The translations under genes and the position numbers were made by a program. Source: Promethearchaeota archaeon (GTDB taxonomy: Archaea; Asgardarchaeota; Lokiarchaeia; Sigyniarchaeales; SOKP01). From it: a stretch of DNA of 64,000 nucleotides. The notes beneath the pieces were generated by a model. The model saw only the letters and a list, made by a program, of their open reading frames with translations, did no database searches and had not been told where the DNA came from. Position 1 is the first letter of the stretch. Each line of letters opens with the position of its first letter. Location of the stretch: assembly GCA_016839745.1 (NCBI GenBank), contig JAEOTS010000116.1, positions 1 through 64,000 of the forward strand. The letters are read 5' to 3'. This document shows positions 25,783-38,090 of this stretch, in pieces.

Positions 25783-26427
25783 ATGTCATCCAATAGAAAG
25801 GTAAAAGAAGAAATAATTACGCTTCTCATAGAGCATTCTAGAATAATTTATAGTGTAACTAGTGATATGGGAGTATATTACTCCGCTTGGGCAGAAGATT
25901 TTGAATCTAATAAAAAAAATCTAGAGAAGAAAAAGAGTAAAATGCAACTATCTGAAGAAGAAGCTGACGAGTTAAAAATTCGGTTAATACAAAACTTTTC
26001 AGAAGCAGAAGCCTTTAATCTTGGGGCCTATGTAAATTTAGTGTTGAAAATGGATAACATCATTAATTATCCTCTTGAATTTGTTGATATGCTGACTAAA
26101 ATTAATATTGAAGGAAAGATTGCAAAACAAATTAAAAAGAAATATCATAAGTTATTAAACCAGGTTATGGAAATGGTTGATATTTTAAAAACTGCTATAA
26201 AAAACTTAAGAGACCAACCAGATATGGTTTTTGGAAATACTACAACAATTCATGAACTTGAATCCGAGATCGACAAAACTTACAGGCAATTTCTTGAGTT
26301 CATATACTCTAATATTGAAGACATCAGAACACTATTGAGAATTAGAGATAGTATAGTTCTTTTAGAACAGATGGCAGATCGAGTTCACGATGTTGCTGAT
26401 TTAATGAGAGTGTTATTATACCAATAA
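25783..26427 (+). CDS. DUF47 / PhoU-like phosphate-transport regulator
   Basis: Two helical repeats with EEEAD and HELESEID motifs, and LEQMADRVHDVAD. Confidence 0.8.
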   Translation: MSSNRKVKEEIITLLIEHSRIIYSVTSDMGVYYSAWAEDFESNKKNLEKKKSKMQLSEEEADELKIRLIQNFSEAEAFNLGAYVNLVLKMDNIINYPLEFVDMLTKINIEGKIAKQIKKKYHKLLNQVMEMVDILKTAIKNLRDQPDMVFGNTTTIHELESEIDKTYRQFLEFIYSNIEDIRTLLRIRDSIVLLEQMADRVHDVADLMRVLLYQ

Positions 26428-26582: not shown

Positions 26583-26954
26583 GTGAATTCTATGAATGGA
26601 AAGAAGAAATTTTATATTTTACTCGGATTTTTCCAATTAGTATTGGTAGCTATTGTATTCCTAAGCGTAGATGGCGTTATAACGATGGTAGCGGCACAAA
26701 CAGAGAGTTTTGATTATTATAATTCTCCAACAGCGGCAATTTTGGCAGTTTCCGCAGCAATATCTCTCGCTGCATCAGTATTAGGAAGTGCTATGGCTAT
26801 AAGAACAGTAGGTACAGCAGCTATATCGTCCTTATCCGAGAGAGAAGAAAGTTTTTTTAAGGCATTTTTAATCGTAGCATTATGCGAAGCTTTAGCCGTG
26901 TATGGTTTAATTGTAGCAATCCTATTCTGGACAAAAATACCTAATCCGATATAA
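26583..26954 (+). CDS. atpK: A/V-type ATP synthase proteolipid subunit K (c) with an N-terminal extra hydrophobic helix
   Basis: Hairpin ending FLIVALCEALAVYGLIVAIL with the ion-binding Glu; ATG at 26592 is an alternative start. Confidence 0.9.
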   Translation: MNSMNGKKKFYILLGFFQLVLVAIVFLSVDGVITMVAAQTESFDYYNSPTAAILAVSAAISLAASVLGSAMAIRTVGTAAISSLSEREESFFKAFLIVALCEALAVYGLIVAILFWTKIPNPI

Positions 26955-26995
26955 TTTCGTTTATTATTTAAATTCTATAGTTAGGTGATTTTTGC

Positions 26996-28051
26996 ACGAG
27001 TATAATTATTCCATCTTATGCGTATACATTTATCAAAATCGATTATTTAAAGAATTTAATTATTGATGATGATACTTTAAGAAGATTGAAAACTGTATAC
27101 GATATTGAAACTTTTATAGACATCATAAAACCTTTTTATCCGAATATAGAGATAAAGGAATATACTATAGAAGAAATTGAAGGAGTTTTAATCAATAATT
27201 ATATTCAACTAATTGGAAAAGTTCAACAGTTTTCTCCTCTTAACATGAGAAAGTTCTTAAAAAACTATCTGATGAAGTTCGAAATTCAAAATCTCAAACA
27301 AGTTATCATCAGTTTAATTATAGGGATGGGACAAGAGGAAAGGAGAAAAAATATTAACTTCTTAGTTGAGGTCTATTTAGATAACACAGAATTCATTGAA
27401 GATTTGCTTAAACTCACCACTTTAGATGAGATTCAAATATTTCTTAAAAAATCTTTATATAATATTCCTATTAGAGAAGGGATCCTTTACTTTAAGAAAA
27501 ATAAAGAAATTTTTGTCCTGGAGGCATTTTTAGATCAACTATATTTTAATCATCTCAGAGAGCAATTAAAGAATTTAAATAAAAAAGAAAAAATAATGAT
27601 CTCATTATTTGTGAAGTATAAAACTGAGATTTATAACTTAAATGTGATTTATAGAGGAATTAAAAATAAAATCGATAGAAAATTACTATCACAATTTTTA
27701 GTGAATGATTATTTATTTTTAAATGAAGATAAACTCAACCATTTGTTAAATCTTAATACTCCTGACGATTTTCTCTCAAATGTGGAGTTATATCTTAAGA
27801 ATATAACAAAAACAGAGCAGATTTTTATCACATTAAAAATTGACCCTAAGCATATAATTAGGTCAATAGAACAATTTTATATTACTTATTATTTCAAGAA
27901 ATTTAAAATTAAAATCGACGATATTAACTTTTTCACAATATCAAAAATTTTGGAAGTCTTAATAAAAAAGGAAAAAGAAATCAAGTTTGATATCCTACCA
28001 AGAGTTATTAAAATCATTCATAAGAAGTTTAGAGGATTAAAAAAGTTATAG
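26996..28051 (+). CDS. atpC: A/V-type ATP synthase subunit C
   Basis: Operon position; FEIQNLK, LEAFLDQLYF, EIYNLNVIYRGI. The open frame upstream of TTG 27086 encodes the expected PSYAY N-terminus and begins at ACG 26996. Confidence 0.85.
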   Translation, partial: TSIIIPSYAYTFIKIDYLKNLIIDDDTLRRLKTVYDIETFIDIIKPFYPNIEIKEYTIEEIEGVLINNYIQLIGKVQQFSPLNMRKFLKNYLMKFEIQNLKQVIISLIIGMGQEERRKNINFLVEVYLDNTEFIEDLLKLTTLDEIQIFLKKSLYNIPIREGILYFKKNKEIFVLEAFLDQLYFNHLREQLKNLNKKEKIMISLFVKYKTEIYNLNVIYRGIKNKIDRKLLSQFLVNDYLFLNEDKLNHLLNLNTPDDFLSNVELYLKNITKTEQIFITLKIDPKHIIRSIEQFYITYYFKKFKIKIDDINFFTISKILEVLIKKEKEIKFDILPRVIKIIHKKFRGLKKL

Positions 28052-28104
28052 ATATGAAATTAATCATTTAATAAATAAAAAATAGTAAATAAGGTGCTAG
28101 AATA

Positions 28105-28416
28105 ATGGAAATTTTTAAATGGGTTGAAGAAATCGAAAAAATTTATGATGATTTAATTGAGAAAGCTAAAAAAGAAAGTTTAGAAGATATCCGAAAAGCA
28201 AGGACTTCTCAAGAAAAAGAAATGGAAAATACAATTTATAAAAATCAAGAAATTATTAACGAGGCGCTAGCTAAAGTTTCCAAAGAGGTTAGTGAGAATT
28301 CTGAAAATTTTGAAGAATTATTAAAGAATTTATGTAATAAGATTGAAAAATATTACCAAGAAAATAAAGAAGGATTATCAAGTATACTATTTGAAAAATT
28401 AGGTTTTGATTTTTAA
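28105..28416 (+). CDS. atpH: A/V-type ATP synthase peripheral-stalk subunit H/G
   Basis: 103-aa charged coiled-coil (IEKAKKE..I..AR) inside the operon. Confidence 0.7.
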   Translation: MEIFKWVEEIEKIYDDLIEKAKKESLEDIRKARTSQEKEMENTIYKNQEIINEALAKVSKEVSENSENFEELLKNLCNKIEKYYQENKEGLSSILFEKLGFDF

Positions 28417-28733
28417 TGCCGGATGCAAAAATACATGTCATTGGTTACGACGAGATAGTCTCCTTGCTTGGTCTTCTAGGTATCGAAGGGACTATAGCCA
28501 ATAATAAAGAAGAATTTATCAAAAAATTCGAGAATTTGATAAAAAGACCATCAATTGTAATGATAATTATAAATATGGAGTTGCCAGACGATACTTTTGA
28601 ATATATTATGGATTTTAAGATTAATAATAGGATTCCTTTTATATATCTTTTACCCGATATCTTTCAACCAGATATTAGAAATCACGATAAATTATTTGAT
28701 AGGATTCATGAATTAATAGATGAAATTATTTAA
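28416..28733 (+). CDS. atpF: A/V-type ATP synthase subunit F
   Basis: KIHVIG..V..L.LLGIEG, P.I..LPD; TAATG coupling to the upstream gene. Confidence 0.85.
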   Translation: MPDAKIHVIGYDEIVSLLGLLGIEGTIANNKEEFIKKFENLIKRPSIVMIIINMELPDDTFEYIMDFKINNRIPFIYLLPDIFQPDIRNHDKLFDRIHELIDEII

Positions 28734-28749
28734 TTGAAGGTGATTAGCC

Positions 28750-29472
28750 ATTAGTGAAGGACAAGAAATTAAGGGAAGGTTTGGGAAATTAGGGTTGTAT
28801 TTAATAAGCCAAGCAGAAAATGATATAAAGACCATTAATCAACAAACTCTCTTTCAAATAGCAGAAGCTAAGAAGAAAAACAAGGAGAGAACTAGAGAAA
28901 GTTCTTTAAAGATGAAAGCGCACTTTAATGAAACCTTTAACAAATTATTAAATAGCTCTCTATCTTCAACTCTTTTAAAAATTAAAGAAGAAGTATTGAA
29001 ATCTAAAAATAAGTTAATGTTAGAGCTTATTTCTGACTTAACAGATTTAATAAACAATAAAATAAAAAACAACTATCCAAATTACACTAAGTTTATACTA
29101 ACAATTCTTAAAAATATTAAATATATTGTTGATAAGCCACCAGAGATTATTATTACATTAAATTCAAGAGATTACGACTTTTTTAGCAATAATAATGAAC
29201 AAATAGAAGAAATTTTTAAGAATAAAGTCAAGCTAAAGAAATCGGAGAAAAAATTCACAGGTGGTTTTATTTGCGTTGTATTGTCAGGAAATATTTCATA
29301 TAATTATACGATTGAAAATCAGTTAAAAAAAAACACTTCAATTATAGAAATTGAGTTTTCAAAGATTTTTTCAGATTCAGAATCAGATATTAAAAAGCTT
29401 GAAAACGATTATGTTCAATTTATACAAAATCAAAAGTTAGCTGTAGATAATTACTTAAAGGATTATGAATGA
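28750..29472 (+). CDS. atpE: A/V-type ATP synthase subunit E
   Basis: N-terminal coiled coil and C-terminal GGFI..GNISYNYTIE; frame open upstream of TTG 28795 to ATT 28750. Confidence 0.85.
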   Translation: MSEGQEIKGRFGKLGLYLISQAENDIKTINQQTLFQIAEAKKKNKERTRESSLKMKAHFNETFNKLLNSSLSSTLLKIKEEVLKSKNKLMLELISDLTDLINNKIKNNYPNYTKFILTILKNIKYIVDKPPEIIITLNSRDYDFFSNNNEQIEEIFKNKVKLKKSEKKFTGGFICVVLSGNISYNYTIENQLKKNTSIIEIEFSKIFSDSESDIKKLENDYVQFIQNQKLAVDNYLKDYE

Positions 29473-31306
29473 AACTAAAGAAGAGATTAAATCCGGATAC
29501 ATTTCATCCATAAATGGAACCTTAATAGAGATTAAGGGCTTAGAGGACCAAGTTCGACTTCATGATTTAGTAAGAGAATCTAAGCATAAAATTTTAGGTG
29601 AAGTAATCCAAATTTATTCTGATCATGTGATTGCAAAAGTGTTTGAAAACACTTTTAATCTAAAACTAAATGAAGAAGTACTAAGTTTACAAGAACCCCT
29701 ATCAATGGAATTAGGTCCGGGATTATTAGGTAAAATTTTTGATGGAATTCAGAGACCACTCGAAGCAACTTTTTTAAAGTCTGGAGGGGGTGGTTTTTTA
29801 GAGAGAGGTGCAGATATTCCTTCCTTATCAAGGAAGAAAAATTGGTCTTTTAAGCCATTACGGAAGATTGATGATTTTGTAAGCACGGGTTATGTTATAG
29901 GAGTTGTTCAAGAAACTCAACTTATAGAACACAAAATAATAGTACCAGTAGGAGTTTTTGGAAAAATAACTTATATAGCAGAGGAAGGGGAATATACTGT
30001 AATTGATGAAATTTATCGCCTAAAAAGAGGATCAAAAGAAAAATCCTTTAATATGATTCAGAAATGGCCAATTACTAAACATAGACCTTATAAGGAACGA
30101 GATTATCCTCAAGAACCGCTAGTAACAGGAATGAGAGTGATTGATTTATTATTTCCAATAGTAAAAGGAGGCACGGTAGCCGTTCCTGGTGGTTTTGGAA
30201 CTGGTAAAACAGTTATTCAACAATCTCTAGCAAAATGGTGTAATGCCGACGTCGTCGTTTATATAGGCTGTGGGGAGCGAGGAAACGAGATAGCAGATGT
30301 TTTAAAACAATTCTCTGAAATCACTGATCCTAAGACTGGTCATTCGTTACTAGAACGAATTGTTATCATTGCGAACACTTCAAATATGCCTGTTTCCGCT
30401 CGAGAAGCGAGTATTTTTTCTGGAGTTACTATTGGAGAGTATTACAGAGATATGGGTTATGATGTTGCCGTTTTAGCTGATAGCACTTCAAGGTGGGCAG
30501 AATCTCTGAGAGAAATCTCGGGGTTATTAGAAGAAATGCCCGCTGAAGAAGGATATCCGGCCTATTTACCTTCAAAAATTTCTAGTTTTTATGAAAGAGC
30601 CGGAATTGTTAATCTTTATGGGGATGAAGATTTAGGAAAAGAGAATTATGGTTCTTTAACTATTATCGGTTCAGTATCACCTCCTTCAGGAGATTTCAGT
30701 GAACCCGTAACTTCAACAACTAAGCGTTTTGTTCAAGCATTTTGGGCATTAGACGCAAATTTAGCTTACTCCAAGCACTACCCTGCAATAAATTGGCTAA
30801 ACTCGTACTCAAAATATCCTGAATCCATTTCTGATTGGTGGTATGAAAGAGATATTTATTGGCCTGAGATAGATATAGATTGGTATGAGTGTCGAAAACA
30901 AATAAATTACATTCTATCTCAAGAGAATGAACTAAAAAATATTGTCCAATTAGTTGGGGAAGAAAATTTACCTGAAAATCAACAATTTATCCTCTTTATT
31001 GCTAGAATAACGAGAAATAGCTTTTTAATTCAAAATGCATTTGATTCGATTGACTGCTTTACAGGGATTAAAAAATTAATTGGGTTCGTGAAACTTATTT
31101 TATTATTGTTTAACGAAGGTAAGCAATTAATAAATCAAGGATTTTTGATCGAAGAAATCAAGGAACTTAAAGTTGTAAATGATATCCTTAGAATTGGTCG
31201 ATCAGTTCCTAACGATGATTTTAAAAGATTAGAAAAATTAAGAACTAAACTGATTAATGAAATAGAAACTTTAAAGTTATTACATGGTGTTTTTAAGAAG
31301 AAATGA
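29465..31306 (+). CDS. atpA: A/V-type ATP synthase catalytic subunit A
   Basis: [14 protein letters not shown]-loop [39 protein letters not shown]. Confidence 0.96.
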
Positions 31307-32694
31307 GCGTCATTTATAAAAAGATAAAGAAAATTATTGGACCTTTAGTGTTTTTAGATAATAAACATGATGTACAATATGGTGAGATCGTCAAAATCAG
31401 AACGGACGATGGTAAAGAACGAACGGGCCAAGTTGTGAAAATGGACGAGAGTACAATAACTATCGAAGTATTTGAGGATACAGCTGGACTGTCTTCCGAA
31501 AATTCTACAATTACCTTCACTGAAGATTCATTTAAAATAAAAATATCTAGTGATATGTTTGGAAGGGTGTTTAACTCCTTAGGAAAACCGATTGATATCA
31601 ATACAAAACAAGTATTAGAATCTGATATTTTAACTGAAATAGAAAGAGATATAAATGGTTTACCTATTAATCCATTTGCTCGAGAATATCCTTCAGAAGT
31701 TATTCAAACAGGAATCTCTGTGATAGATGGTCTTTTTACGTTAATTAGAGGGCAAAAACTCCCAATTTTTAGCGATCAAGGAATGCCCCATAATTTATTA
31801 GCAGCACAAATTGTTACTCAAGCCAAAGTTTTAACCGAAGAACCATTCTTAATAATTTTTTGCGGGATAGGAATCATCCAAGATGAAGCAATTTTTTTCA
31901 TGAAGCGTTTTCAAGAGAGCGGAAACATTCAGAATATTATTTCTTTTATCAACTTTGCTGATGATCCAATAATGGAAAGATTAATTGTTCCTCGTGTAGC
32001 TTTAACTACCGCGGAATATTTTGCATTTGAAAAAGACATGCATGTTCTCGTAATTTTAATTGACATGACCAATTACGCAGAAGCATTGAGAGAGTTAAGT
32101 TCAGCTAAAGAAGAGATTCCTAGCAGGAAAGGATATCCCGGATATTTATATACTGATTTTGCATCTCTCTACGAAAGAACTGGAAAAATTAAGGGCAAAA
32201 AGGGAACTATAACACAAATTCCGATTCTAACAATGCCAGGAGGAGATATAGCCCACCCTATTCCGGACACTACTGGATATATTACCGAAGGTCAATTAGT
32301 TCTAAATCGCAATTTGGACAAAAAAGGAATCTATCCTCCGCTTGAGGTTTTAGCTTCTATTTCCCGGTTAATGAAAGATGCTATTGGTAAAGATACTACT
32401 AGGGAAGACCATGCGGATGTTAGTTCTCAATTATTATCTTCTTACTCCGCTGCTCTTGAAGTTAGAGACCTTATATCAATTGTTGGAGAAGATGGATTAA
32501 GTTTTAATCAGAAAGCATTATTGAAATTTGGAGAAGTTTTCGAGCAAACTTTTTTAAATCAAAGTCATTCTGAGGAAAGAGATATTAAATCAACGCTAGA
32601 TATAGCTTGGAAGGCTTTATCTCATATACCAAGGCATCAATTATTTAGGATTCATCAAGAATTAATCGATAAATATTATGTTGGAGAGGTGTAA
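31303..32694 (+). CDS. atpB: A/V-type ATP synthase subunit B
   Basis: [53 protein letters not shown]. Confidence 0.96.
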
Positions 32695-32700
32695 CCAAAA

Positions 32701-33339
32701 GCGTCTTTTCGTGAATTCCGGCCCACCAAAACTAATCTACTCTCGCTGCAGAAGAGATTAAATTTTGCGGTCAAGGGTGAAAACTTTTTGAAATTTAAAT
32801 TAGAGCAATTAATGGTTGAGATCAAAGGAAATTGGGAAAATTATTTAAAGAGTCGTGAAATCTTTATCGATTTATACAAAGAAACTATGATTAAACTTCA
32901 TCAAACTTATAAAGAAATGGGAAAAAGAGACTTTAGCTTAGTCAGTAAGTTGAGTAAACTTCAATACAAACCTACGATAGATGTAAAGTATTTTAAAAAG
33001 ATTGGATCGTTAATTCCTGTAATTGAATATAAGTTGATAAAGGAGGAATTACTTCCTGCTTATTCATTTGAAAATTCAAGTCATTACCTTGATGACTTAA
33101 TAATAGTTTTAGAAATTTTTTTTGAACAACTCATTATCTTTGCAAAATTAGAAGATATAATGTTAAAGATCTCTCTGTCTTACAAGAAAATAAACCGAAG
33201 AATTAGAGGATTAAAAAATGTGATTATTCCTGAATTACAACTCGAAATAAAAAAAATAAAAGAGATATTAGAAGAAAACGAAAGAGAAAACTATGTTCGC
33301 TTAAAGAATACAAAAGACTTGATAACTAAAGAAATTTAA
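32701..33339 (+). CDS. atpD: A/V-type ATP synthase subunit D
   Basis: The conserved N-terminus RPTKTNLLSLQKRLNFAVKGENFLKFK lies upstream of TTG 32788; C-terminal RRIRGLKNVIIP..LEENERENYVRLK. Confidence 0.88.
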   Translation, partial: ASFREFRPTKTNLLSLQKRLNFAVKGENFLKFKLEQLMVEIKGNWENYLKSREIFIDLYKETMIKLHQTYKEMGKRDFSLVSKLSKLQYKPTIDVKYFKKIGSLIPVIEYKLIKEELLPAYSFENSSHYLDDLIIVLEIFFEQLIIFAKLEDIMLKISLSYKKINRRIRGLKNVIIPELQLEIKKIKEILEENERENYVRLKNTKDLITKEI

Positions 33340-33356
33340 TTAGAAGTGATTTAAAA

Positions 33357-35681
33357 ATGGCAGAAAAAAGTGTTATGGTATTATTTAGGGTTAATATTAA
33401 TCAAAATTACAGGGATCTCCTCCTACAACATCTATCTCAACTATATTTGGTTCACATTAAAACTAGACCAGAAGAAAGTGCGAAATTTGAAAGGGATGAT
33501 GTTTTATTTGAGAGAATTAATAACTTGAGTCAGAGTTTAGAATCCTTATTTAAAAGTCTTGATATTACAGAATCTGATTTCCAAAAATTAAGTTTTGAAC
33601 CTGATGAGAGGAAAAAATTTGAAGTGAAAGATATTGACGATTTAATAAACCAACTTGTAAATGAAATTAATTATTATTCCAATCGGATTAATGAGTTAAA
33701 AAATAATCGTACTTCTATTGAAATTGAGCTAGAAAAAATCAACACAATCCATGGAAGTTATCTATTTTTAGAGAAATACAAGTTAACTCGAGATAAATTA
33801 ATGAAATTCAAACTTTTGGAATTTAAAGCCTTTACAACATTCGCAAAGAATCTAGAAAATATTGAAAATATCTTTGAATTCTCGCATTTTCCAAATTTTC
33901 TTCATTATGATTATCTAAGTAATGAAAGAATCGCATTTTTTATAATCTATCCTAAGGAAAACGAGGATGAATTTAGAGAAAGGATACGGCTAATTCACGC
34001 CGAAGAGGTACCGATTCTAAAAAAGTATTTACTCTCTGATGGGATAAACTTTCCTCGAATAGCAAAAGAAATCAAGTTTGTAATTACTTCTTTAAACAAA
34101 AATCAAAAGGAATTAGATAGATTAAGGGACGATCACCTCCTTCTGTTTGCTGCGGCTTATGAGATAGTAAAAAATCTGGAAGAATATAACTGGGTTTCTC
34201 ATCAATTCGAAGAATTATCCTTAAATCGATTAAGTTTGAGTTTTTACCTGCCTAAAGGCAAAGAGAAAGAAATCCAACAAGGGTTAATTGAGAAATTTGA
34301 AGATAAAATTACAATCGATTCGATCGATATTACAAAAAGTAAATTTGTAAGTCTGAAAGAGGATAGGGATCACGTACATTCTGGGAAGTCTAAAGATGCA
34401 AAAGAAGGAACAATTTCAAAAGAAGAAACAGCAGTGAAAGAAAAAGAAGAAGAAAAAAAAGATTTAAGACATTCTGCTCCTACTATCATGAGGAATAATT
34501 TCTTTGTGAGACCTTTTGAAACAGTTACTAAAATGTATGGGGTTCCTGCGTATTCAGAAATTGATCCGACCCCAATTATTGCTATAACATTTCCAATTTT
34601 GTTCGGGATAATGTTTGGAGATATTGGACATGGTCTTGTCTTAATTATTGCAGGTTTAGTTGGTGCGATAATTTATAGAAACAAAAAAGGAAAGGATTTT
34701 TTAAATTTTTGCTGGATCATTCTATATTGTGGTGTTGGAGCGGTGATAATTGGATTTCTTTACGGTGAATTTTTTGGAATGCACGAAATTAAGTTATTTA
34801 ATACAGTTTTCATGCATTTAGAACCTATGACGATTCCTATATTGAATATTACATTGTACAATCCCTTAGATAATATAATGTCAGTTTTTAAGTTTGCAGT
34901 CTTGGTTGGAGTGTTCCACCTTAATTTGGGCTGGTTCGTTCAATTTTTAAATTATTGGAAACAAAAAAGAAAATTCTTAGGTTTTACTGATTCCTTAATG
35001 AAAATATTGTTATTGACTGGAGGAACTATTCTAATTTTTACTTTTGGATTTGACGTTTATTCTTGGTTAGAACCTCAAGTAATATTCAACTTTGGAGCCT
35101 TTACATTTAGTACCTTTCCCATTTTATTGCCGCTAGTTCCAGGTTTACTCTTGATTGTGTTAAAACCTTTAGGTAAAGTATTACATATATCTTATTTGAG
35201 CGAAGAATCTGTTGGCGGACTTATTGGAGAAGGTACAATGGAGACTTTTGAAACGCTACTATCAATTATGAGTAACGTAGCGTCTTATATAAGATTACTA
35301 GCGTTAGCCCTAGCACACATATCATTAATGGTTGCAATCACAGCAATGGGTAATTTAGTTCAAGGTGAGGGTATAGTTAACGATATTATCAATCTCGTAG
35401 GTTCTATATTTGGGAATATGATTGTTATTCTGCTAGAAGGATTATTAGTCTTTATAAATGCTATCAGACTTCATTTCTATGAATTTTTCTTTAAATTTTA
35501 TCAAGGTAGTGGTGTAAACTTCATTCCATTCTATTCAGACGATATATATTCAGTAATAAATTTCAAGATAAGTAGCATTAAAGATGTAATATCCGAAGAA
35601 ATAGATAGAGAAATCGAGTCAAAAATAACTCAAAAAGACATAATGGAAGCAGAAAAACTTGTTTCTAAAAAATATATGTAA
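33357..35681 (+). CDS. atpI: A/V-type ATP synthase subunit I (a)
   Basis: PFE..MYGVP.YSEIDPT, FGIMFGDIGHG, SYIRLLAL (essential Arg), RLHFYEFF.KFY.G.G. Confidence 0.95.
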   Translation: MAEKSVMVLFRVNINQNYRDLLLQHLSQLYLVHIKTRPEESAKFERDDVLFERINNLSQSLESLFKSLDITESDFQKLSFEPDERKKFEVKDIDDLINQLVNEINYYSNRINELKNNRTSIEIELEKINTIHGSYLFLEKYKLTRDKLMKFKLLEFKAFTTFAKNLENIENIFEFSHFPNFLHYDYLSNERIAFFIIYPKENEDEFRERIRLIHAEEVPILKKYLLSDGINFPRIAKEIKFVITSLNKNQKELDRLRDDHLLLFAAAYEIVKNLEEYNWVSHQFEELSLNRLSLSFYLPKGKEKEIQQGLIEKFEDKITIDSIDITKSKFVSLKEDRDHVHSGKSKDAKEGTISKEETAVKEKEEEKKDLRHSAPTIMRNNFFVRPFETVTKMYGVPAYSEIDPTPIIAITFPILFGIMFGDIGHGLVLIIAGLVGAIIYRNKKGKDFLNFCWIILYCGVGAVIIGFLYGEFFGMHEIKLFNTVFMHLEPMTIPILNITLYNPLDNIMSVFKFAVLVGVFHLNLGWFVQFLNYWKQKRKFLGFTDSLMKILLLTGGTILIFTFGFDVYSWLEPQVIFNFGAFTFSTFPILLPLVPGLLLIVLKPLGKVLHISYLSEESVGGLIGEGTMETFETLLSIMSNVASYIRLLALALAHISLMVAITAMGNLVQGEGIVNDIINLVGSIFGNMIVILLEGLLVFINAIRLHFYEFFFKFYQGSGVNFIPFYSDDIYSVINFKISSIKDVISEEIDREIESKITQKDIMEAEKLVSKKYM

Positions 35682-35716
35682 CTTATACTTTTGATTTTTA
35701 AGTAGGAAATTATACA

Positions 35717-36226
35717 ATGAAAAATGAGAATAACCAGAGAGGAAGATTTGTAAAAACATTAATTCTAATCATTTATTTAGTTTTTGTTGTTTTCCTCTTC
35801 TATATTTTATTTATATTTGGGATTAATCCAGTTATTATAGTATTATTACTCATATGTATATCTTCAATCATTCTAGGAATTTTCTTTAGACAAAAAAAAA
35901 AATCAATTTATTCAGAATTATATCCTGATAAAAAACGAAATAAAATTCAGCGTCCTCCTAGAAAGTTAGAATTGAACATTGAAACAGATTCTGAGAAATT
36001 AGTACAAAAAAAATTGAGAAATGTGGACCTGAATTTTAAATATCGCAAATCTCTTATCAATAAATGCGAAAACTGCGGAATGATGATAACTGGTTACAAG
36101 AAAAGGTGTCCTACATGTGGTAAGGATTTTGAATTAAAAGAAGTAATCAAGAAATGCAAAACATGTGGAATGATGATTCCCAAATCTACAAAAAAGTGCC
36201 CAATCTGCGGAACGCGAACATTATAA
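35717..36226 (+). CDS. membrane-anchored tandem zinc-ribbon protein
   Basis: Two N-terminal TM helices; repeats KCENCGMM..CPTCG and KCKTCGMM..CPICG. Confidence 0.8.
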   Translation: MKNENNQRGRFVKTLILIIYLVFVVFLFYILFIFGINPVIIVLLLICISSIILGIFFRQKKKSIYSELYPDKKRNKIQRPPRKLELNIETDSEKLVQKKLRNVDLNFKYRKSLINKCENCGMMITGYKKRCPTCGKDFELKEVIKKCKTCGMMIPKSTKKCPICGTRTL

Positions 36227-36260
36227 TATTTAAAATAGATAAAAAATTGAGATTATAAAA

Positions 36261-38090
36261 ATGGTTTTAGCTATTAACGAATCCAAGGAAGGATTTATCT
36301 CTGCGGTTAATGGTTCATTAGTGGAAATAAAAGGCCTAGAGAATGATGTCAGACTTAATGACTTAATAAAAATAAGCAATCATAATTTTTTATGTCAAGT
36401 AATCCAAATATTTTCCAACCGCGTTATTGCTCAATCCTTTGAAAACACTAACAGTATTAAATTGAACGAGAAAGTCGTCAGCCTTAAAGAACCTTTATCT
36501 ATGGAATTAGGTCCTGGGTTAATAGCAAATGTCTTTGATGGAATACAGCGACCACTAGACCTTACTTTCGATTTTTTTCAAGAAGGAAGATTAAATAAAG
36601 GACTTGAATTTCCATCTCTTTCAAGAACGAAAAAATGGCACTTTGTTCCAACTAGAAAAATAAATGAGATCGTGGATAGTGGTGACGAGATTGGAACGGT
36701 TCAAGAGACTCCTACTTTATATCATAAAATAATGGTGCCACCTGGAAAATCAGGCGTATTATTTTCAATTGTAGATGAAGGTGATTACACTATTATTGAC
36801 GATATCTATAGTTTAAAAAGTGATAACAAAGAGGAATCGTTTTGCATGCTGCAAAAATGGCCAGTTACAAAGAGAAAGCCTTTTAGTGAAAAAGAGCAAC
36901 CTAGCGAGCCGTTGTTGACTGGTGTGCGGATAATTGATTTACTATTTCCTGTAGCAAAAGGTGGTACTTTTGCTGTTCCAGGAGGATTTGGAACAGGTAA
37001 AACAATTATCCAACAGAACATCGCTAAGTATTGCAGTGCAGATTTAATTGTCTTCATAGGTTGCGGGGAACCTGGGAATGAGATAGCCAACTTCCTTAAA
37101 CAGTTTACTGAAACAATTGATCCTGATACTGGAAGACCGTTACTGGACCGGATCGTCCTTATAGTAAATACTTCAAACATGCCTGTATCAGCACGAGAAG
37201 CAAGCCTTTTCTCAGGCATAACAATCGCAGAATATTACAGAGATATGGGTTACGATGTTGCGGTTATTGCAGATAGCATATCAAGATGGGCAGAATCTTT
37301 AAGAGAGATCTCGGGATTATTAGAGGAAATGCCTGCTGAAGAAGGTTATCCCGCTTATTTACCATCGAAATTATCAAGTTTCTATGAACGAGCTGGTGTA
37401 TTTACGACTCTAGGGCACGATCCTAAGGGGAAAAAAAGAAAAGGGTCTATATCTATTATAGGATCAATATCTCCCCCCGCAGGAGATTTTAGTGAACCAG
37501 TTACCTCCGCTACAAAACGCGTGGTTCAAGGAATCTGGGCTCTAGATCCAAAATTAGCATATCTGAAACATTATCCCGCTATTAGTTGGATAAATTCCTA
37601 TTCAAATTACCCTGAATATTTAGCAGATTGGTGGGAGAAGATAGATAAAATTTGGCTTGATTTAAAACTAAATTGGTTTGAATGTAGAAAGCAGGTAAAT
37701 GAGATATTAGCAAAAGAAAACGATCTGAAATACATTACTCAATTACTTGGACAGAAAAATTTAGCTGAAGATCAAAAATTAGAACTATTTACAGCGGATC
37801 TTATAAGAAATGCTTTTTTTATTCAAAACGCTTTCAATGAGGTCGATAATTTTACGAGTAGTAAAAAAATGTTAAGTCTCATCAAGGTTATTCTTCTCTT
37901 ATACAATAAAAGCAAATCGCTTATAAAACGAGGTTTTATAATGAACGATAGAAAATGTGATGAAGTCCTCAACGAGATCATGCGAATTAGCCATTATGTT
38001 CTTAACGAAGATTTTGAACCAATTGAAAAGCTAAAGAAGAACATTAGTAATGATGCAGTGAGCTTGGTTTACACAACTCAACATAAGTAG
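36261..38090 (+). CDS. atpA: second, divergent A/V-type ATP synthase subunit A paralog
   Basis: Full-length paralog of 29465-31306 with GGFGTGKT, but GCGEPGNE and DSISRWAE. Confidence 0.9.
   Translation: MVLAINESKEGFISAVNGSLVEIKGLENDVRLNDLIKISNHNFLCQVIQIFSNRVIAQSFENTNSIKLNEKVVSLKEPLSMELGPGLIANVFDGIQRPLDLTFDFFQEGRLNKGLEFPSLSRTKKWHFVPTRKINEIVDSGDEIGTVQETPTLYHKIMVPPGKSGVLFSIVDEGDYTIIDDIYSLKSDNKEESFCMLQKWPVTKRKPFSEKEQPSEPLLTGVRIIDLLFPVAKGGTFAVPGGFGTGKTIIQQNIAKYCSADLIVFIGCGEPGNEIANFLKQFTETIDPDTGRPLLDRIVLIVNTSNMPVSAREASLFSGITIAEYYRDMGYDVAVIADSISRWAESLREISGLLEEMPAEEGYPAYLPSKLSSFYERAGVFTTLGHDPKGKKRKGSISIIGSISPPAGDFSEPVTSATKRVVQGIWALDPKLAYLKHYPAISWINSYSNYPEYLADWWEKIDKIWLDLKLNWFECRKQVNEILAKENDLKYITQLLGQKNLAEDQKLELFTADLIRNAFFIQNAFNEVDNFTSSKKMLSLIKVILLLYNKSKSLIKRGFIMNDRKCDEVLNEIMRISHYVLNEDFEPIEKLKKNISNDAVSLVYTTQHK

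Follow-up and report, generated by a model that had tools for sequence, protein, structure and literature searches.

A second A subunit without the phosphate-binding arginine at the end of the ATP synthase operon in a family of Lokiarchaeia

Introduction

Why does an ATP synthase operon encode its catalytic subunit twice, and what can the second copy do if it lacks an arginine that is essential for catalysis? This question is raised by the A-type ATPase operon (positions 26583–38090, forward strand) of a Promethearchaeota archaeon (GTDB lineage Archaea; Asgardarchaeota; Lokiarchaeia; Sigyniarchaeales; SOKP01), which lies on a 64,000-nucleotide stretch of DNA (contig JAEOTS010000116.1, positions 1 to 64,000, of GenBank assembly GCA_016839745.1), hereafter the window. 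The source assembly comprises 3.5 Mb in 192 contigs, with 31% G+C and a completeness of 89%. The operon encodes a canonical catalytic subunit A with the motif GCGERGNE (29465–31306, forward strand; 613 amino acids; identified by Pfam and NCBIfam profiles), and its last gene is a second A-type subunit, here named A' (36261–38090, forward strand; 609 amino acids; identified by Pfam in an open reading frame [ORF]), in which the motif reads GCGEPGNE.

The head of a rotary ATPase is thought to be fixed, with three catalytic and three non-catalytic subunits. Regulation of these enzymes, like their ion/ATP ratio, is attributed to small inhibitor proteins and c-ring size. An earlier note, made from the letters of the window and its translated ORFs, had proposed that A' binds nucleotide without catalysing and could replace A in the head as a brake or regulator, or serve as an assembly factor. 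Judged by its sequence, A' is a paralogue within the A family from which a single defining catalytic feature is missing, namely the arginine of the GER motif. No description of A' was found in a literature search.

A' is an A-type subunit with proline in place of the GER arginine

A' aligns with A of the same genome at 61% identity over 603 residues with five gaps (BLASTP). Both proteins possess an N-barrel, a bulge (ATP-synt_ab_Xtn), a nucleotide-binding domain, and a C-terminal domain, and A' scores above the cut-offs of all four Pfam models (PF02874, PF16886 for the bulge, PF00006, and PF22919); it is a full-length, intact paralogue, as the earlier note had described it. The NF003220 profile matches A' at 699.6 bits (cut-off 470). 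The equivalog model TIGR01043 scores A' at 695 against a cut-off of 972, which the canonical A of the same genome also fails to reach (756). Assignment of A' to the B-type subunits was rejected (NF003235, 136 bits, cut-off 349, and TIGR01041, 92 bits, cut-off 845; A' has an intact P-loop as well as the bulge), as was assignment to the FliI/SctN type III secretion ATPases (TIGR01026, 164.5, below the cut-off of 379.5). The AlphaFold2 model of A' (predicted local distance difference test [pLDDT] score 88; predicted template modelling [pTM] score 0.90) superposes on solved A subunits with template modelling scores (TM-scores) of 0.86–0.95 (Enterococcus hirae, Thermus thermophilus, and eukaryotic A chains), and phmmer E-values of A' against A/V-type catalytic A subunits range from 1e-164 to 1e-146. 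The closest proteins belong to metagenome-assembled genomes (MAGs) of Candidatus Lokiarchaeota or Promethearchaeota and carry the database name "V-type ATP synthase subunit A"; no name among these closest records sets A' apart from A.

The substitution itself is at Pro271 (codon CCT, 37071–37073, forward strand), where A has Arg272 (CGA at 30278). The Walker A P-loop (GGFGTGKT, residues 241–248; 36981–37004, forward strand) and the catalytic Glu270 (37068–37070, forward strand) are kept, so that the change from GCGERGNE to GCGEPGNE with P-loop and glutamate intact was read correctly from the window. Site conservation was assessed in an alignment of 101 A' and 51 A sequences. At position 272 (A numbering), all 101 A' have Pro and all 51 A have Arg; the P-loop is invariant in all sequences of both sets, and Glu270, Arg312 (the second phosphate-binding arginine), Asp338 (Walker B), and Phe410 (the adenine phenylalanine) are invariant in the 101 A'. 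Two further observations of the earlier note held in part. The codons do differ in two bases, but only the second position alters the residue, and CGN to CCN is a single step; the replacement of DSTSRW by DSISRW is present in the A' of the window but is not a family trait, position 340 of the 101 A' being Ile (57 sequences), Thr (42), or Leu (2).

Only four positions cleanly separate A' from A: R272P, D278N, I317L, and S436L. In the window, the last three correspond to Asn277 (37089–37091), Leu316 (37206–37208), and Leu435 (37563–37565), all on the forward strand. The first of these is Asn in 88 of the 101 A' (Ser in 7, Asp in 5, and His in 1) and Asp in every A; the second, four residues after the kept Arg312, is Leu in 100 of the 101 A' and Ile in 51/51 A; and the third, within the segment LAYxKHYPAI, is Leu in 98 of the 101 A', with Ser in 49 and Ala in 2 of the 51 A. 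Comparison of the 101 A' with the 51 A revealed no A'-specific basic residue able to replace the lost arginine. In the AlphaFold2 model, Pro271 is placed in the loop between strand 262–268 and helix 273–284, the latter including Asn277. At the other end of the protein, the canonical A of the family terminates in a conserved basic tail (LKL..GVFKKK; 31250–31306), which is absent or variable in A' (38040–38090).

The consequences of losing this arginine can be gauged from characterized enzymes. In the V1-ATPase of E. hirae, Arg262 of subunit A contacts the gamma-phosphate, together with the P-loop lysine and the arginine finger of B, and starts the "arm" helix (residues 261–275; PMC5095293). In Escherichia coli F1, the mutations beta-R182Q and beta-R182K, which remove the same arginine as is missing from A', abolish ATP synthesis and binding of inorganic phosphate (Pi) and leave only traces of ATPase activity (0.02 and 0.25 U/mg, respectively, vs. 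42 U/mg in the wild type); beta-Arg182 was shown to have no part in the binding of MgADP (PMC3268026). Because these homologous mutants lose synthesis and nearly all ATPase activity, A' is expected to be catalytically crippled; retained nucleotide binding combined with crippled catalysis also fits the invariance of all other site residues in A'. By homology, then, A' probably retains nucleotide binding with little or no catalytic ability, which is the part of the earlier proposal that agrees with the alignment and with the E. coli mutants.

Distribution of the proline

A proline peculiar to this assembly would, according to the earlier note, have refuted its proposal. The proline is not peculiar to it: within the same genus, all 16 second copies of A (two of them partial) read GCGEPGNE, the first copies reading GCGERGNE, and the proline is shared by all 101 A' of the alignment and by 75 genomes of one family. 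At the DNA level, a pattern for the GEP form of the motif has exactly one match in each of 75 of the 154 genomes of the order, which are also the only positives among 400 genomes of the phylum (Asgard); the reversed control pattern has no match in the same genomes. All GEP-positive genomes belong to a single Lokiarchaeial family (74 of 134, plus the source genome), in which they are spread over six genera (25/41, 42/54, 3/5, 1/6, 1/1, and 2/10). All four proline codons are used across genomes. An assembly or sequencing artefact is ruled out by the presence of the proline in all second copies, with all four codons, in many genomes. GEP is also carried by 90 of the 120 best metagenome protein clusters (90% identity).

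The universality of the arginine was checked in 150 A-type subunit representatives (50% identity), a set that lumps A and A' together and contains no extra A' lineages. Arginine is present in 99/99 strict-motif matches; of the other 51 representatives, about 30 have a looser GER motif with Arg, one (P0255) has GEQ, and the rest have no recognizable motif. Several of the distant A-type proteins P0226, P0242, P0257, P0269, and P0255 are full-length (about 600 amino acids) and lack a recognizable P-loop, and other lineages may have degenerate A-like subunits of their own.

Origin and selection

The A' sequences make up a single clade in a maximum-likelihood tree (Shimodaira–Hasegawa-like approximate likelihood-ratio test support, 98), and the branching within this clade repeats that of A from the same genomes. 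Such mirroring points to one old duplication followed by vertical descent, and a single origin of A' is thus likely on phylogenetic grounds. Consistent with considerable age, synonymous sites are saturated between A and A' within genomes of the genus (proportion of synonymous differences [pS], 0.58–0.75). A Trp-rich insertion of six residues is common to the A and A' of the family and to one copy in G031, a genome from another family of the same order, and is absent from sister-family A; the lineage-specific duplication that the earlier note had deduced from this segment is thereby supported.

When the motif column was masked, a FastTree phylogeny of the 101 A' and 51 A required two label changes. 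The exception is a lineage represented by GCA_029856045.1 and its kin, in which the A and A' of the operon itself group together beside the main A' clade. In that genome (L060:10001-18457, JAHQWG010000039.1), the identity between A and A' is 81% for protein and 85% for DNA (pS 0.35), vs. approximately 61–65% protein identity elsewhere, as a result either of gene conversion in the recent past or of another duplication. The A' of this lineage nevertheless keeps Pro, Leu316, Val421, Leu435, and the shortened C-terminus, and its A has Arg, Ile, and Ser, although position 278 of A' is still Asp. That the signature residues persist despite homogenization means that they were retained or regained, which argues that selection acts on them. 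In sliding windows of 30 codons (no significance test applied), pS in the homogenized lineage peaks near the proline and Leu435 and not near Leu316, which is suggestive only.

Purifying selection on A' is comparable to that on A, and the relaxed selection that the earlier note had named as refuting its proposal is not found. For orthologous pairs, the ratio of nonsynonymous to synonymous substitutions (dN/dS; Nei–Gojobori) is 0.05–0.21 for A' and 0.055–0.146 for A in the same genome pairs. The A' ORF is intact in every genome examined and, given also the dN/dS values and the conservation of the proline, a pseudogene is ruled out. Per-site entropies of A' and A are correlated (r = 0.76), and mean entropies are similar domain by domain: 1.15 in A' vs. 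1.14 in A for the N-barrel, 1.07 vs. 1.13 for the bulge, 0.50 vs. 0.38 for the nucleotide-binding domain, and 1.11 vs. 0.92 for the C-terminal domain.

Operon organization and neighboring genes

The operon has the gene order c, C, H/G-like ORF, F, E, A, B, D, I, ZnR, A', with all genes on the forward strand. Upstream of A are the genes for subunit c (26583–26954; PF00137), subunit C (27086–28051; PF01992), an H/G-like ORF of 103 amino acids without a Pfam match (28105–28416), subunit F (28416–28733; PF01990), and subunit E (28795–29472; PF01991). A is followed by subunit B (31303–32694; Pfam), the central-stalk subunit D (32788–33339; PF01813; the start is that of the ORF finder, and the true start may be further upstream), the membrane stator subunit I (33357–35681; PF01496), and ZnR (35717–36226; 169 amino acids), a membrane-anchored double zinc-ribbon protein with zinc-ribbon Pfam matches that sits between I and A'. 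A convergent gene for a tRNA-splicing endonuclease comes after A'. Just upstream of the c gene, an ORF of 214 amino acids (25783–26427) has no Pfam match and keeps its synteny with the operon in most members of the genus, at 63–89% identity.

B, I, and c are each encoded once in the genome, which has only three ATP-synt_ab genes in all; thus, A' has no machine of its own. The start of A overlaps the stop of E by 8 nucleotides, and the stop of A overlaps the start of B (ATGA), whereas A' has no overlapping codons and is preceded by gaps of 34–35 nucleotides. A is therefore translationally coupled to E and B, and A' is not coupled. The A–B overlap, set against the gap before A', fits production of A and B at 1:1 with a separate, probably smaller, supply of A', and a lone-standing gene suits a minor subunit that replaces A. 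A separate promoter for A' is not claimable: a bacterial-consensus promoter and terminator scan over the operon gave 63 and 8 matches, respectively, vs. 67.5 and 6.1 in shuffled sequence, the consensus being bacterial and not applicable to archaea, and the AT-rich TATA-like stretch that precedes A' is not conserved among orthologues. Some orthologues have a Shine–Dalgarno (SD)-like GGTGA upstream of A', as for an internal operon gene.

ZnR occurs in 119 of the 134 family genomes, among them genomes of genera that lack A', and weak matches stand beside ATPase operons of the sister family. In alignment, ZnR proteins have two transmembrane helices, a basic linker, and an invariant core, L..Y.K....KC..C...(7)..K.CP.CG, with one or two ribbons. 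A role for ZnR as an A'-specific tether is ruled out by this wider distribution and by ZnR loci without A'. Rather than a dedicated partner of A', ZnR is an older accessory of the ATPase operon and, taken by itself, an accessory gene as yet undescribed in these operons.

Operons of other genomes deserve mention. In G008 (G008:C24:189639-192465; L058), a genome of the same genus with 100% completeness, A and B are only 48% and 50% identical to those of the window, and there is neither ZnR nor A'; the ATPase operon of G008 may have been replaced by a foreign one. G031 has two different A/B pairs, both with GER, on contigs C121 and C112 (L025, L050, L059); these would be two complete ATPase operons, and thus a duplication of another kind than A'. 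The public MAG record of locus L066 (DATKTW010000165.1, the same contig as G011:C165) is titled "Candidatus Nanopelagicaceae bacterium" and carries a Lokiarchaeial ATPase operon, so that its taxonomic label looks wrong.

A proposed role for A' in the ATP synthase head

We infer that A' is an old, vertically inherited paralogue of catalytic A that belongs to the organism's single A1Ao ATP synthase. A' would keep nucleotide binding but, without the arginine that holds the gamma-phosphate or Pi, would barely hydrolyse ATP and could not synthesize it. It would pair with the single B and, most probably, replace A at one or more positions in some of the A3B3-type heads. The domains in contact with B, the stalks, and the shaft are conserved to the same degree in A' and A. 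Most simply, this is read as A' occupying A positions in the ring; furthermore, a subunit with P-loop, catalytic Glu, and bulge all retained would be a competitor for A and not for B positions. The A' site would take up MgADP or MgATP without turnover, such that wasteful, ATP-driven rotation stalls, and rotation driven by the ion gradient could push past the dead site; the outcome would be a latch against ATP hydrolysis and less ATP per turn. A laboratory parallel is the hybrid F1 alpha3-beta2-beta(E190D)-gamma, in which one crippled, slow beta subunit is placed in an otherwise normal head: this enzyme rotates, with one long pause per turn at the hydrolysis angle of that subunit (PMC2755722). 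A subunit unable to hydrolyse at all should stall ATP-driven rotation. Our best explanation is that A' brakes ATP hydrolysis from within some heads and lowers the ATP yield per turn, and we give it about an even chance of being correct. Mixed A/A' heads could in addition shift the gear of the enzyme, in that one dead site would leave 2 ATP per turn, and two dead sites 1, instead of 3, which would raise the ion/ATP ratio; synthesis could then proceed at an ion-motive force too low for A3B3, and the same site would latch hydrolysis. We allow this extension a small chance only.

Several observations weigh against a brake in the head. The strict keeping of the catalytic Glu and of the whole pocket could mean that chemistry continues at the A' site, and the A' model is less confident at residues 271–280 (block pLDDT 65). 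About half of the genomes of the family lack the GEP motif, and four genomes (G001, G003, G006, and G020) have the arrangement I–ZnR–endonuclease at the syntenic site without A', no copy of which was found elsewhere in these four genomes; G007 and G011, in which the contig stops before the A' site, were not counted as absences. Placed on the A tree, this pattern requires about three losses of A' within the genus. Having been lost in several relatives, A' is dispensable, and is an accessory rather than a core part. In addition, all record titles examined are those of MAGs, and no cultured organism with A' was identified.

The alternatives differ in where A' would act and whether it would still turn over nucleotide. 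Separate, homotypic A'3B3 heads would constitute a silent second population, such as hibernating enzymes, Ao capped so as to be ion-tight, or assembled stators in reserve. With all domains present and an A-like conservation profile, A' could fill all three positions, and as a separate cistron, uncoupled from A or B, it could be regulated apart; but the sole B gene is translationally coupled to A, there is no second D, I, or c, and the SD-like GGTGA of some orthologues resembles that of an internal operon gene, and we regard this arrangement as unlikely. Slightly less credit is due to an A' that is still catalytic with altered kinetics or specificity, for instance as a slow hydrolysis timer or with another nucleotide or phosphate donor, the proline having reshaped the pocket. 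The invariance of Glu270, the P-loop, Arg312, Asp338, and Phe410 in the 101 sequences speaks for it, as do the replacement of Arg always by Pro and never by another residue, the co-fixed D278N, I317L, and S436L, which suggest a tuned pocket, and the persistence of Pro, Leu316, Val421, and Leu435 in the GCA_029856045.1 lineage despite 81% identity between A and A'. However, even the conservative beta-R182K substitution abolishes ATP synthesis and Pi binding in F1 (PMC3268026), A' has no compensating basic residue, and Arg is found in every catalytic-type A representative with a recognizable motif (the 99 strict matches and the approximately 30 variants).

A' might instead act outside the finished head, either as an assembly factor or chaperone for B or A1, or as a nucleotide sensor, either soluble or tethered to the membrane, perhaps by ZnR. 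This would agree with its position as the last operon gene, adjoining ZnR in all A'-bearing loci examined, and with its dispensability in several species. Against this, ZnR is found in 119 of 134 family genomes and A' in 74, so that ZnR is no A'-specific partner, and the N-barrel, bulge, and C-terminal domain are conserved as in A, which is more constraint than a chaperone that binds B would need; we think such a role doubtful, at about the level of the gear shift. Finally, losses in several relatives would be expected of a decaying or neutral duplicate without a function of its own, but with ORFs intact in all genomes examined, a dN/dS of 0.05–0.21, persistence to synonymous saturation, and a proline kept through all four of its codons, this explanation is barely credible.

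Comparison with known rotary ATPases

With the A/V-type catalytic A subunits (AtpA/NtpA; Pyrococcus horikoshii 3M4Y/1VDZ, E. hirae 3VR4/3VR6, T. thermophilus 3GQB/7VAI), A' shares the four-domain architecture including the bulge, as well as the P-loop, catalytic Glu, Walker B, and adenine Phe. It differs from them by the Pro for the GER Arg in every member, with D278N, I317L, and S436L co-fixed; by being a second copy at the operon end with no coupled B; and by the missing or variable C-terminal tail of the family. The B subunit of A/V-type and the alpha subunit of F-type enzymes are, as proposed here for A', nucleotide-binding, non-catalytic paralogues in the same ring. B and alpha, however, arose before or near the last universal common ancestor and alternate with the catalytic subunit, whereas A' is a family-level duplicate of A. 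The turning of a duplicated rotary ATPase subunit into a non-catalytic one is a classic fate (discussed in bioRxiv 10.64898/2026.10.01.756066).

The F1 mutants described above are laboratory constructs of the F-type; A', in contrast, is natural, selected, separately encoded, and part of an A-type enzyme. The outcome proposed for A' is also that of the protein inhibitors IF1, bacterial epsilon, and alphaproteobacterial zeta, which block hydrolysis and allow synthesis. Those inhibitors, however, are small and unrelated, and they jam the rotor or an interface, whereas A' would act inside the ring as a defective motor subunit. The NeqA–NeqB core of Nanoarchaeum equitans is reportedly without ATPase activity. 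This natural A/B pair (5BN3–5BN5; PDB title "a unique ATP synthase core complex") differs in that NeqA is the only A subunit of the organism, whereas A' is a second copy.

Implications

A' appears to have been selected across a whole Asgard family for lacking one essential catalytic arginine. A third, separately encoded subunit of the head type would give rotary ATPases a new means of regulation or re-gearing, and A' would represent a recent natural replay of the ancient step from a catalytic to a non-catalytic subunit. Should the gear shift prove true, the stoichiometry of a rotary ATP synthase would be tuned in the head and not in the c-ring, and energy-starved Lokiarchaeia would in this way be adapted to life near the thermodynamic limit. 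The archaeal ancestor of eukaryotes is a near relative of this lineage, which subsists on very narrow energy margins, and A' would bear on the bioenergetics of both.

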